DNA of 64,000 nt. Source: Fluviicola sp. Lineage in GTDB: Bacteria; Bacteroidota; Bacteroidia; Flavobacteriales_D; Crocinitomicaceae. Within the stretch, counting starts at the first letter, position 1. Each line of letters begins with the position of its first letter. The notes below the pieces were generated by a model that had not been told where the DNA came from, searched no databases, and saw only the letters and a list, made by a program, of their open reading frames with translations. Below are positions 47,744 to 62,567 of the stretch, piece by piece. The translations under genes were made by a program, and so were the position numbers. The DNA lies in contig JAJTEO010000002.1 in assembly GCA_021300395.1 (NCBI GenBank), positions 6,768 to 70,767 on the forward strand, read 5' to 3'.

Positions 47744-48441
47744 TCTTATTTATATTTTTATATATAATTAAATATCAATTACTTAATTGTATATTTTAAG
47801 TTCATTTCAACCATTCTAACTGAATGTACATTTTTAATTTCAAAAAACCTATTTTCTCTTAGTCTCTTCTTTTGAATATAAATAAAATAAAGAATTTTTT
47901 AAATAAAGAAAACTTATTCTATTTATTAGTGATGTTCATATGTTTAAAAAAAGCTTAACTTTTAATTGCTAATCTGACTTATCAAAAATATATGGGTTAT
48001 TATTAACAAACTTAAGTTATTTAATGTTATAGTTTTTGAAGCATTTACAACGTTATTAACAAAAAAGACTTAAAATGATTTTGTGTATTACTTTTTTATG
48101 AATTCAATATAAATTCTGTGTTAAAAACGTTGGTAATTTCTCCAAAACTTTGTCAAACTTTTAGTCTTTAATTCAACTATTCTTTTGTTTGTAATTATAA
48201 ATTTAATATCCAAAACAATTCTTTTAGAACTTATAAACACCTATTAACAATTGAGTTTCATTTTGTGTTTGAATTTTAATTTATTAAACTACTCATTTTC
48301 AATTGTTCTTAATTTCATAATTTTCCATAATGTTTACAATTAACACCAATTGTTAATAGTGAACAAAACAATTCGTTTTTGTCATTATTTTCTTATTTCA
48401 GATAATAAATCATTCATTAACTTTACAAAAAATTCAAGTTT

Positions 48442-57845: not shown

Positions 57846-58271
57846 ATGGTAAATCTTTTTTTTGAAGATGTTGAAATTCTGGGTTTAGATCCAGAATTTT
57901 TTATTTCATGGCTATCTGATTGCTGTGATACTGAAGGTAAATCTTTAGAAGAAGTTAATTTGATTTTTTGTTCTGATGAGTATTTACTTCAGAAAAATAT
58001 TGAGTTTCTTCAACATGATTATTATACTGATATTATCACGTTTGATTATTGTCAAGGGGATTTGATTATGGGTGATCTATTTATTTCTAAAGATCGTGTT
58101 ATTGATAATGCACAAACTAATGGAGTTTCTTTTGAGAATGAATTAAATCGTGTTATTGTTCATGGTGTTTTACATTTGTGTGGATATAAAGATAAGTCTG
58201 TTGACGAAGAGAAATTAATGCGTTCGAAAGAAGATTTTTATTTGGATAGAATTGTTCCACGTGAAACTTAA
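57846..58271 (+). CDS. ybeY: rRNA maturation RNase YbeY
   Basis: HGVLHLCGYKD zinc motif, 141 aa. Confidence 0.9.
   Translation: MVNLFFEDVEILGLDPEFFISWLSDCCDTEGKSLEEVNLIFCSDEYLLQKNIEFLQHDYYTDIITFDYCQGDLIMGDLFISKDRVIDNAQTNGVSFENELNRVIVHGVLHLCGYKDKSVDEEKLMRSKEDFYLDRIVPRET
58253..58268. other. parS site 1 (TGTTCCACGTGAAACT), inside the 3' end of ybeY
   Basis: 15/16 match to the canonical chromosomal parS TGTTNCACGTGAAACA. Confidence 0.8.
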
Positions 58272-58301
58272 TTTTTATATGAATTTTAATCGTTGTAATT
58301 T

Positions 58302-58317
58302 TGTTCCACGTGGAACA
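58302..58317. other. parS site 2 (TGTTCCACGTGGAACA), ybeY-mnmG spacer
   Basis: Perfect 16-bp palindrome, the symmetric form of the parS consensus. Confidence 0.85.
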
Positions 58318-58325
58318 CGAAAATT

Positions 58326-60197
58326 ATGTTGAAAGAATACGATGTTATAGTTGTTGGTGGTGGTCATGCTGGTTGTGAAGCTGCAAATGCTGCTGCCAAA
58401 TTGGGTAGTTCGGTTTTGTTGGTTACAATGAATATGAATACCATTGCTCAAATGAGTTGTAATCCTGCTATGGGTGGGGTTGCTAAAGGTCAAATTATTC
58501 GTGAAATTGATGCACTTGGTGGTGGTTCTGGAATTGTTACTGATAAAAGTGCAATTCAATTTCGAATGTTGAATTCTTCTAAAGGTCCGGCTATGTGGTC
58601 TCCTCGAGCGCAAAGCGATCGAATGAAATTTGCTGAAGAATGGCGTTTGTTGCTTGAGCGTAATCCGAATGTAGATTTTTGGCAGGATATGTGTTCTGGA
58701 TTGATCATTGAAGACAATATTGTAAAAGGTGTTCGTACTTCTCTTGGTATTGATATTTTTTCAAAAACTGTTGTTTTGACGAATGGCACTTTTTTGAATG
58801 GTTTGATTCACTTGGGTGAAAAGCAATTTGGTGGTGGTCGTGCTGCTGAAAGAGCGTCAACTGGAATTACAGAGGATTTGGTTGCAATTGGTTTTGAAGC
58901 CGGACGTATGAAAACGGGTACACCTCCAAGAGTTGATGGTAGATCTTTGGATTATTCTAAAATGGAAATTCAACCTGGTGATGAAAATCCAGCTAAATTT
59001 AGTTTTAGTGATACGTTACCATTAAGCGAACAGCGACCTTGTTATATTACATATACAAATAGTGTTACTCATGAAATGTTGAAGACTGGTTTTGATCGTT
59101 CTCCAATGTTTAATGGTTCTATTAAAAGTACTGGTCCACGTTATTGCCCTAGCATCGAAGATAAAATAAATCGTTTTGCTGATAAAGATCGTCATCAGAT
59201 TTTTGTTGAACCTGAAGGTTGGGATACATGTGAAATATATGTGAATGGTTTTAGTACTTCTTTACCTGAAGAAATTCAGTTGGCAGCATTAAAAACAATT
59301 CCTGGTTTTGAAAATGTAAAAATGTTTCGTCCAGGCTATGCAATTGAATATGATTACTTCCCTCCTACTCAGTTAAAACATACTTTAGAAACGAAGTTAG
59401 TGAAAGGTTTATATTTTGCTGGTCAGATTAATGGAACTACTGGTTATGAAGAAGCAGCTTGTCAAGGTTTAATGGCTGGTATAAATGCTCATCGTAAAGT
59501 TAATAATCAAGAAGATTTTATTTTATCTAGAAGTGAAGCTTATATAGGAGTTTTAATTGATGATTTAATTACGAAAGGAACTGAAGAGCCTTATAGAATG
59601 TTTACAAGTCGTGCAGAGTATAGAATTTTACTTCGTCATGATAATGCTGATATTCGTTTAACACCTTTAGCTCATGCTATCGGTATGGTTACTGATGGTG
59701 AATTAAAAAGAGTTCAAGATAAGTTAGAAGGTGTTCAAGCCCTTAAGAAGTCTTTACAAAAAGAAGGTGTTTCTCAAGAGGTAGCTAATCCTATTTTACT
59801 TTCTAAAGAAAGCTCACCAATTACTCAACAAGTTAAATTATCATCTTTAATTACACGTCCACATATAACTATTGAGGATGTATTATCGATGAGTTCAGTT
59901 TCTAAACTTTTAGCTGAACAATTGTTAGAGATTAACTCTGAAATAGTATCTCAAACTGAAATACTTCTTAAGTATGAAGGTTATATTTCTCGTGAAGAAG
60001 ATTTGGCTTTAAAGATGAGTCGTATGGATGAGCGTAAGATTCCAGATGGAGTTGATTATATGGTCATACCTAGTTTAAGTATAGAGGCTCGTCAAAAGTT
60101 AACTAAATTACAACCTGCTACTGTTGGTCAAGCATCTAGAGTTAGTGGTGTTTCTCCAAGTGATATTGCTGTTTTGCTAATTCATATAGGAAGATAA
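58326..60197 (+). CDS. mnmG: tRNA uridine-5-carboxymethylaminomethyl(34) synthesis enzyme MnmG (GidA)
   Basis: FAD motif [26 protein letters not shown], full-length 623 aa. Confidence 0.96.
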
Positions 60198-60207
60198 TAT
60201 ATATTAT

Positions 60208-60223
60208 TGTTTCACGTGAAACT
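60208..60223. other. parS site 3 (TGTTTCACGTGAAACT)
   Basis: 15/16 match to the parS consensus, 11 nt after the mnmG stop. Confidence 0.8.
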
Positions 60224-60224
60224 C

Positions 60225-60257
60225 AAAATCCGATCTGTTTTAGGTCGGATTTTTTTG
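60225..60257 (+). terminator. rho-independent terminator of mnmG
   Basis: AAAATCCGATC/GGTCGGATTTT stem (one G-U pair), 7-nt loop, T7. Confidence 0.75.
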
Positions 60258-60454
60258 TTAACTTATTTCTTAATCCTTATAGATTATTTATTTCTTTAAT
60301 TTAGATCTTCTCTCTGTTTTTCTATTTATTATTAATGATGATGAATTTTATGATTATCTATATTCATTATTCTAAACAATAATTTTTTCATTTCACATTT
60401 CTATTATTTTTGTATTCTTATTACATTTCTAGATTTTACTTGAAAATCTCTTTT

Positions 60455-60470
60455 TGTTTCACGTGAAACT
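60455..60470. other. parS site 4 (TGTTTCACGTGAAACT)
   Basis: Identical 16-mer to site 3. The flanks are also shared (TTGTTTCACGTGAAACTCAAA). Confidence 0.8.
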
Positions 60471-60603
60471 CAAATTGAGCGTTTTTTAAGATTGAAAATT
60501 GATTTTAATGCGTTTTAAGACATCTTTTTTCTGTTTAGTATAGAAATATATTGCCAGTTATTAGATAATCGATTTAAAAAGACGTGTTTTTCGACTTTTT
60601 TAC

Positions 60604-60637
60604 AAAAAAAATGGCCGATTTATTAAAAACCGACCAT
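60604..60637 (-). terminator. rho-independent terminator of ispG
   Basis: On the minus strand, AUGGUCGG/UCGGCCAU 8-bp stem (two G-U pairs) followed by U7-8. Confidence 0.65.
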
Positions 60638-60657
60638 TTTATATAAAATTTATTTAT

Positions 60658-62567
60658 TTAGTTTGTTGGTTCAATCCAATCACCATTTTCTTTGATCAAA
60701 TTAATTAATGCATCGACTGCTTCATTTTCAGAAACATTTTTTTGCATTACGTTTTTCTCTTTGTATAAATTAATTTTTCCTGGACCTGTTCCAACATATC
60801 CATAATCTGCATCTGCCATTTCACCTGGACCGTTAACGATACAACCCATGATTCCGATTTTGATTCCTTTTAAGTGAGAAGTTCGTTCTCTAATTTTTTG
60901 AGTTGTTTCTTGAAGATCAAAAAGAGTTCTACCACATGATGGACAAGAAATATATTCAGTTTTAGAAATTCTGGTTCTTGTTGCTTGTAAGATTCCAAAG
61001 GCAGTTGAATTGATAAATGAATCTGATTGATTAGAAGTAATCCAAATACCATCTCCAAATCCATCGATTAAACTTGCTCCGAATTCTGCCGATATTGCTA
61101 ATTGAAACATTTCTGAATCACTTTCATTTTTTTCAATGTGAAGTATAACTGGATTATTTATATCTAATTTCGATAAATTAATTCTAAAATTGCGAAATAA
61201 TTGTGTTTTGTTTGAATATTCAGTTTCTAATACAATGATAGCTTTTGAATATTTTTTAAGAATTTCTAAGTTCTTTTCTTCTGCTTTTGTTCTAACAAAA
61301 AATGTTTTATCAGAATCATTCATTGAATTTAATTGATCGAATTCTAAAATTGGATATACATTGTTTGAACTTGAATAATTCTTTTTCCAATTTTCAAAAT
61401 CTGCTATTATTTTCAAAGAGCCTGGTAATTCAAAAGATGGATTTTGATTTCCAATATATGCAAAATCAACTGCTTGATCCGTAAAGTTGTATTTGTCTAG
61501 ACTAACGGAATAATTATATCCAAAAGCAAATAAATTAGCAGGTTTTAAGTCTGTTTTTTTGCTTAAATCTGCAATTACTACGGGCACATGATGTCCACCA
61601 ACATGTTCATTTTCAATTGATTTTCTTTTAGAATATTCGAAAGGACTGTATGTTAATTCTTCTAATTGAATACCAGACAAATCAAATTCATTTGAATGAT
61701 TCAAATATTTTTCAATCAATTTTTTTGCAACTGGAATTTCAAATTCAGGTTCTTCAGTTAATGATACTCTAATGGTGTCACCCAAACCATCTTCTAATAA
61801 TGTTCCAATTCCAACAGCTGATTTAATTCTACCGTCTTCTCCATCTCCAGCTTCTGTTACACCTAAATGCAGAGGATAATTCATTCCTTCAGCTTTCATT
61901 TGAGCAACCAAAAGTCGGTAAGCCTGAACCATCACCAAAGTATTACTAGCTTTCATAGAAATCACAAACTCATGGTAATCATTTTTACGACAAATTCGAA
62001 TGAATTCCATCGCTGATTCAACCATTCCTTCAGGAGTATCTCCGAAACGACTTAAAATTCTATCAGATAATGAACCATGGTTTGTTTACAGATTTTAATT
62101 AAAGGTGTAAATTTTGATTCAATTCTTTCTAATTCAGCATGATAAGTAGCATCAGTATATTCGATTTCCTCAAATTTCTTTTTATCGGCATAATTTCCAG
62201 GGTTAATTCTAACCTTTTCAATTAATCGAGCAGCAATTTCAGCAGCATTTGGGGTAAAATGGATATCAGCGACCAAAGGAGTTGTGTAATTCTTATCGTT
62301 TAAGATTTTTTTGATTACTCCTAAATTCTCCGCTTCATTTTTACTTGGAGCCGTAATTCTAATCAATTCACATCCTGCCTCAATTAATCTAATAGATTGG
62401 TTAACAGAGCCTTCTGTATCCATAGTGTCAATCGTTGTCATTGATTGAACTCTAATTGGTTGTTCACCACCTAGTTTTAGTGAACCAATTGAAATTTCTT
62501 TTGTTGGAAATCGTTTACGGATTAATAGATTTTCACAGTAAGTATGAGGATTCAAATTATTGCTCAT
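60658..62567 (-). pseudogene. ispG: 4-hydroxy-3-methylbut-2-enyl diphosphate synthase (IspG/GcpE), reading frame broken near 62082..62090
   Basis: The N-terminal ORF (62052..62567: IRVQSMT, ADIHF, RINPGN) ends ...LIKICKQTMVHYLIEF*. The conserved continuation TNHGSLSDRILSRFGDTPEGMVESAMEF is in another frame, open only from 62084. The expected ~9-10 aa (..A-x-R-I-G-V) between ICK and NHGSL are absent. Confidence 0.8.

Follow-up and report, generated by a model that had tools for sequence, protein, structure and literature searches.

We analyzed a 64,000-nt stretch of DNA (hereafter the window) from a Fluviicola genome, and found that four 16-mers clustered around the mnmG (gidA) gene are very probably the chromosomal parS sites, that is the centromere, of this Crocinitomicaceae bacterium (order Flavobacteriales). 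A centromere-like region had been proposed at this place in a first-pass annotation made from the window sequence alone, and the proposal is upheld by the agreement of the sites with the parS consensus, their uniqueness in the genome, the presence of a ParAB pair, conservation that is specific to the sites, and the linkage of the locus to the replication origin in relatives. The element is a standard, ordinary chromosomal parS cluster, and its location is common to most of the class Bacteroidia. The genome (G000) is a 2.52-Mb draft metagenome-assembled genome (MAG) of 173 contigs with 83% completeness and 31% GC, in which the window is located on contig C86. The sites and the features around them are listed below by window position; G004 and G007 are two relatives of the same genus with the same site 3/4 arrangement, the latter being the more distant one.

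57846-58271, + strand: ybeY, encoding an endoribonuclease (Pfam YbeY, E 1.4e-25), with site 1 in its 3' end (..IVPRET, then stop)
58253-58268: predicted parS site 1, TGTTCCACGTGAAACT, lying in the five final sense codons (V-P-R-E-T) of the ybeY gene, with the stop codon at 58269-58271 directly after them
58302-58317: predicted parS site 2, TGTTCCACGTGGAACA, a perfect 16-bp palindrome; the mnmG ATG (58326) lies 8 nt past its end
58326-60197, + strand: mnmG (gidA) (Pfam GIDA, E 1.9e-163), flanked by the sites and oriented away from the probable origin
60208-60223: predicted parS site 3, TGTTTCACGTGAAACT, beginning 10 nt past the mnmG stop (60197), directly ahead of a terminator hairpin
60225-60253, + strand: intrinsic terminator of mnmG with a stem of 13 pairs and a T-run after it, also conserved in G004 and G007
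60254-60454: spacer between sites 3 and 4, 17% GC, a fast-evolving filler with 41% identity between G000 and G007
60455-60470: predicted parS site 4, TGTTTCACGTGAAACT, duplicating site 3 and located inside a 32-nt block that is invariant in relatives of the same genus

A scan of the window recovered all four 16-mers at the positions given by the first-pass annotation, including the perfect palindrome at site 2. Compared with the consensus TGTTNCACGTGAAACA, each site has a single mismatch located at the outermost or a near-outermost position, and the CACGTG core is intact in all of them. Of the five occurrences of the core hexamer in the window, four are the parS sites. Altogether, the window contains 10 matches to the consensus with up to three mismatches, as compared with a mean of 2.8 in dinucleotide shuffles (none of the 100 shuffles reaches 10), and the matches other than the four sites lack the core. 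Sites 3 and 4 have 21 nt in common (TTGTTTCACGTGAAACTCAAA) and enclose 231 bp with a GC content of 19.9% (versus 30.5% in the whole window), in agreement with the shared flanks and the AT-rich segment of about 230 bp described before.

The search was extended to all contigs of the assembly, where these four are the only sites with at most one mismatch and an intact core. The 16-mer is not scattered over the genome in the manner of a dispersed generic repeat. Under the assumption of independent bases at genome frequencies, 0.25 sites with at most one mismatch are expected by chance per 2.52-Mb genome, and the probability of four sites within 2.2 kb, corrected for the number of windows, is ~1e-13. 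The sole other one-mismatch site genome-wide, TGTTACAAGTGAAACA at positions 694-709 of contig C28, has a broken core (CAAGTG) and is within this chance expectation.

The proteins expected to act on such sites are also encoded in the genome. The single ParB_N match belongs to ParB in a canonical parA-parB operon on contig C169, so that the absence of parB, named in the first-pass annotation as a finding that would speak against a centromere, does not apply. ParA (270 aa) has an AAA_31/CbiA domain, and there is an overlap of a few codons between its gene and parB. ParB (304 aa) consists of the ParB_N domain with the GERRxR motif for binding of cytidine triphosphate (CTP), present as SGERRFRA, the HTH_ParB domain, and the C-terminal dimerisation domain ParB_C. 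The nearest solved structures are the proteins of Myxococcus (7bnk), Bacillus (6sdk, E 3e-47), Caulobacter (6t1f) and Thermus (1vz0), with E-values between 1e-43 and 1e-49; the chromosomal ParB/Spo0J of Helicobacter is also among the nearest structures, with an overall E-value range from 1e-41 to 1e-49.

Since dnaA (contig C168) and parAB (contig C169) lie on other contigs than the window in G000, we took the origin position from two single-contig relatives, G017 (4.366 Mb) and G020 (4.383 Mb). The GC skew was sampled in 220-kb steps, and its minima were obtained from contiguous stretches of 440-460 kb. The resulting positions are as follows:

G017, genes: dnaA at 0.5 kb; parB at 810 kb; mnmG/parS at 2,720-2,721 kb
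G017, GC skew: negative to positive at 2.64-2.86 Mb and back (terminus) at ~0.7-0.9 Mb; cumulative minimum at ~2.740 Mb
G020, genes: dnaA at 3,133 kb; parB at 2,262 kb; mnmG/parS at 934-936 kb
G020, GC skew: negative to positive at ~0.7-0.88 Mb and back (terminus) at ~2.9-3.1 Mb; cumulative minimum at ~0.875 Mb

The syntenic parS cluster is separated from the spacer upstream of rpiB and the skew minimum by 21 kb in G017 and by 68 kb in G020, which corresponds to 0.5-1.6% of the chromosome, and mnmG is directed away from the skew minimum in both genomes. The dnaA gene is located 1.6-2.2 Mb from the skew origin in these relatives, near the skew terminus in G020; the parAB genes are distant from parS as well, and are found near the terminus in G017. 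Taken together, dnaA and parAB lie at 0.8-2.2 Mb from the origin in these two genomes. The genes at 44-60 kb of the window (encoding a LytTR regulator, RpiB, an ECF sigma factor, GltX, a DUF4175 protein, a HATPase protein, YbeY and MnmG) are syntenic in G017 and G020. The fragmented assembly of G000 is the reason for relying on this synteny, together with an oriC-like spacer in the window itself, and both provide indirect support for an origin-proximal position of the parS cluster in G000. The first-pass annotation had described the whole window as origin-proximal, and the skew of G017 and G020 places the locus close to the origin and not far from it. According to a Hi-C study (PMC10197239), the origin need not coincide with dnaA, and the parS clusters of Bacteroides are found at the origin and apart from dnaA.

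The oriC-like spacer is the following feature of the window:

47744-48441: probable oriC, a spacer of 698 bp and 19% GC flanked by rpiB and a divergent gene for a PAS kinase, with site 1 located ~10 kb downstream

The rpiB-upstream spacer is probably the replication origin. It carries two perfect and four one-mismatch TTATTAACA boxes at positions 48000-48359, contains the densest TATTAACA(A) cluster of the genome, and ranks second among all 700-bp stretches of the genome in AT-richness. In the relatives, the spacer upstream of rpiB is found ~3 kb (G017) and ~9 kb (G020) from the cumulative skew minimum, and the non-coding blocks TTATTAACAATTG, TGTGTATTAC and TTATTAG-G-TGTT are conserved in the spacers of all three genomes. 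The possibility that TGTGTATTAC, one of these blocks, is a DnaA box was also considered and rejected, as its copy near dnaA lies inside the first dnaA codons and is hence uninformative.

Several observations weigh against this interpretation of the locus. The parAB genes do not stand beside parS as in the classical arrangement; they occupy another contig in G000 and are 0.8-1.9 Mb away from parS in the relatives. The cumulative GC skew of contig C86 itself, a noisy signal, has its minimum near 8-10 kb of the window and not at 48 kb, and the distance to the origin in G000 is inferred from the relatives. Clusters of E. coli-type DnaA boxes (TTATCCACA with at most one mismatch, at least four per 600 bp) were absent from G000 and from the 900 kb searched around the minima of the GC skew in G017 and G020; the assignment of oriC therefore depends on the variant box. 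Finally, in a fragmented MAG of this completeness, additional parS sites could sit in unassembled DNA.

The location of dnaA and parAB on other contigs and the skew minimum of the contig away from the candidate oriC would be compatible with real parS sites that are not origin-proximal in this bacterium, and that would serve another function of ParB such as the organisation of the nucleoid at a non-origin locus. We consider this highly improbable: the syntenic block is found within 21-68 kb of the skew minimum in both complete relatives, where it is dnaA that is 1.6-2.2 Mb off, and the window has an oriC-like spacer 10 kb upstream of the sites that is conserved with G017 and G020.

The arrangement of parS around mnmG is widespread. 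The proteins closest to this MnmG (74-82% identity) are those of MAGs assigned to Crocinitomicaceae, Fluviicola and Brumimicrobium, all from the Flavobacteriales. Consensus-like parS sites were identified in 30 of the 31 genomes of the order, usually as a few sites on a single contig with a spacing of ~1.9 kb; the gene for MnmG is located between or beside these sites in five relatives. We compared 80 loci of Bacteroidota centred on mnmG, and in 70 of them parS is present beside mnmG, either on both sides (50 loci), upstream only (18) or downstream only (2); the ten loci without sites belong to Saprospiraceae, Dyadobacter, Arcicella and some unclassified MAGs. The zone upstream of mnmG contains 2.63 parS sites per kb and the downstream zone 1.35, versus 0.006 per kb in the other 496 kb of these loci, an enrichment of 200-400x beside mnmG. 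Across the 80 loci, the commonest position is 22-50 bp upstream of mnmG, and sites at 0-80 bp past the mnmG stop are common in Flavobacteriales. The site within ybeY is also a recurrent feature, as the parS 16-mer encodes the YbeY tail (I/F/Y)V(P/S)RET in 12 of the 15 loci of the family, and the alternation of Pro and Ser in this tail matches C/T at the single degenerate position of parS.

The number of parS copies per locus varies from 1 to 8 among relatives, with other lineages amplifying the upstream side (up to six or eight). A different layout was noted in G209, another genome of Bacteroidia, in which seven parS sites are spaced almost exactly 99 bp apart at positions 13202-13810 of contig C24 and further sites occur on three other contigs, 12 in all; this array has the style of a tandem repeat, unlike the usual 2-4 sites.

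Site 2 has an additional property related to the expression of mnmG. The -7 promoter box of Bacteroidota has the consensus TAnnTTTG, and a sequence of this type overlaps the site:

58296-58303: TAATTTTG, fitting the Bacteroidota -7 box TAnnTTTG; its last two bases are shared with the start of parS site 2

The fused (G)TTGTAATTT-parS context is conserved in Crocinitomicaceae loci. We infer that TAATTTTG is the -7 box of mnmG, an assignment that predicts a start of the mnmG transcript inside the parS site. With site 2 overlapping both the predicted -7 box and the leader, ParB occupancy may also modulate mnmG transcription. A scan for sigma-70-type promoters showed no enrichment over shuffles, with a model that is not one of Bacteroidota promoters.

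This overlap, the distance of only 8 nt between site 2 and the mnmG ATG, and the class-wide occurrence of sites at both ends of one gene raise the question of whether the palindromes are mainly transcriptional operators of mnmG (and of the ybeY transcript 3' end), bound by ParB as a local repressor or by another CACGTG regulator, with no role as a centromere. Such an explanation appears very unlikely to us. The sequence is the cross-phylum consensus of parS, and the only ParB-family protein of the genome shares an operon with ParA. Sites 3 and 4 stand past the stop codon, where an operator makes poor sense, and the freedom of copy number and spacing to vary between loci is typical of centromere arrays. 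In addition, the locus tracks the replication origin.

The same four-site layout as in G000 is found in G007, and the site 3/4 pair is also present in G004; both of these sites are invariant in the two genomes. Between G000 and G007, site 3 with the adjoining terminator is 90% identical and the site 4 block is 94% identical, versus 41% for the spacer between them. This pattern indicates that selection acts on the sites and not on their surroundings, and it identifies the site 3/4 module as an old within-genus duplication of which both copies were maintained. The local amplification of parS suggested in the first-pass annotation therefore stands as far as the duplication is concerned, and does not stand as a recent event, the pair being old, common to the genus and kept under selection. 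The 21-nt direct repeats around AT-rich non-coding DNA could also be pictured as a dispersed repeat or as the remnant of a mobile element or plasmid partition cassette, with the repeats of sites 3 and 4 made by insertion of the 231-bp segment, but this can be dismissed as extremely improbable given the absence of other copies in the genome, the core housekeeping genes on both sides with synteny conserved across the order, the retention of both repeats in G004 and in the divergent G007 with the enclosed DNA drifted to 41% identity, and a spacer devoid of any open reading frame (ORF), Rfam family or transposase.

Two further observations were made downstream of site 4. The ispG terminator (60608-60640) is separated from site 4 by a 137-nt non-coding block (60471-60607) whose identity between G000 and G007 is 77%, as compared with 41% in the adjacent spacer. 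No match to Rfam was obtained at E <=1 in the mnmG-ispG intergenic region, and the folding of this block is no better than that of shuffles on either strand (z-scores of -0.64 and +0.55, neither significant). On the minus strand at positions 60658-62567, ispG (GcpE) is split by a frameshift or an assembly error into two ORFs that differ in frame (171 aa and 455 aa).

The first-pass annotation had also carried over the loading of SMC by parS from other bacteria, and this part of the background proved not to be transferable. Searches with SMC_hinge, a full-length SMC model, SMC_N, ScpA, MukB and DUF4194 (MksE/JetB) revealed no condensin in G000 (83% complete) or in G007, G017 and G020, each of which is 99% complete. 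The TIGR02168 model had no match above 30 bits in these four genomes, and the best SMC_N frames, of ~550 and 387 aa, have the sizes of RecN and RecF; none is SMC-sized. The SMC_hinge model alone missed the Caulobacter control, and was replaced by the full-length model with a phylum-wide positive control. Of 120 genomes of the phylum, 103 have an SMC of ~1,180 aa that the full-length model detects with 860-1,157 bits; within the class, SMC is present in only 20 of 99 high-quality genomes. As no SMC-ScpAB, MukBEF or MksBEF was found, an SMC-loading role of the Bacillus/Caulobacter type is probably not operating here in its known form. According to Lamy-Besnier et al. 2023 (PMC10197239), two Bacteroidetes species of the Bacteroidales also have no known condensin. 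We considered the location of parS at mnmG as a result of SMC loss, and discarded this idea on the ground that 15 of the 20 SMC-positive Bacteroidia also have parS close to mnmG (within ~350 bp in 14 genomes and ~1.7 kb upstream in G150).

Going by what is known of ParABS systems, the parS cluster would be expected to work in the following way. Dimers of ParB would nucleate at each parS site, bind CTP, close as clamps and slide over a few kb around ybeY-mnmG. ParA bound to adenosine triphosphate (ATP) on the nucleoid would then draw the duplicated ParB-parS complexes apart soon after the nearby origin, probably the rpiB-upstream spacer ~10 kb off, has fired. The presence of several sites in 2.2 kb may provide a higher local loading rate as well as redundancy.

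A more speculative role can be conceived for the majority of the Bacteroidia, in which no condensin is found, and we regard it as an unlikely one. The pair of parS sites at the ends of mnmG could load a still unidentified machine that aligns the chromosome arms, and the occupancy by ParB could couple mnmG expression to the replication/segregation cycle. A secondary diagonal is seen by Hi-C in Bacteroides in the absence of any known SMC (PMC10197239). The coupling of mnmG (that is, of tRNA modification) to the cycle is suggested by the overlap of the start-proximal site with the putative mnmG -7 box, and by site 1 being written into the stop region of ybeY.

The identification of these sites anchors the centromere of an uncultured Crocinitomicaceae bacterium and, with the spacer rich in TTATTAACA, also its probable origin of replication, in a group in which dnaA is of no use as an origin marker. 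It also provides a Flavobacteriales example of a class-wide pattern, in which parS hugs mnmG, the origin is far from dnaA, and no known condensin is found. This pattern makes the Bacteroidia suited to asking what the role of ParB-parS is when there is no SMC to load. In the literature that we searched, we found no explicit description of the layout with parS sites flanking mnmG.

Among the comparable systems, those of Bacteroides caecimuris and Muribaculum intestinale are from the same phylum; in these species the parS cluster marks the origin seen by Hi-C and GC skew, which is not at dnaA, and no known condensin is present (PMC10197239). The two species are Bacteroidales, whereas the genome studied here is from the Flavobacteriales, and the consulted sections of that report describe no mnmG-flanking layout, ybeY-embedded site or promoter overlap. 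The Spo0J(ParB)-parS system of Bacillus subtilis has the same 16-bp palindrome (consensus TGTTNCACGTGAAACA), the same ParB architecture and a ParA partner. In both bacteria the sites occur in and between genes near the origin, with one site within a coding sequence (spo0J in B. subtilis, ybeY here). However, the B. subtilis sites are spread over the origin-proximal domain, while all of the sites described here fall within 2.2 kb, with parAB unlinked from parS and no SMC-ScpAB found.

Pseudomonas aeruginosa likewise has four consensus-like sites (parS1-parS4, PMC4368675) grouped tightly around gidA and close to its origin; one parS site suffices there, suggesting redundancy. In Pseudomonas, gidA-gidB-parA-parB and dnaA are located near oriC, and both SMC and MksBEF are present; in contrast, dnaA and parAB are elsewhere in our genome and no condensin was found. 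Blattabacterium lacks both dnaA and gidA, and is thus uninformative here. Escherichia coli, which relies on MukBEF and lacks a chromosomal ParABS/parS system, has an oriC that directly abuts gidA, whereas the candidate oriC of the Crocinitomicaceae bacterium lies ~10 kb upstream of the sites, beside rpiB. The two bacteria are nevertheless alike in having an origin that is linked to mnmG (gidA) and not to dnaA.

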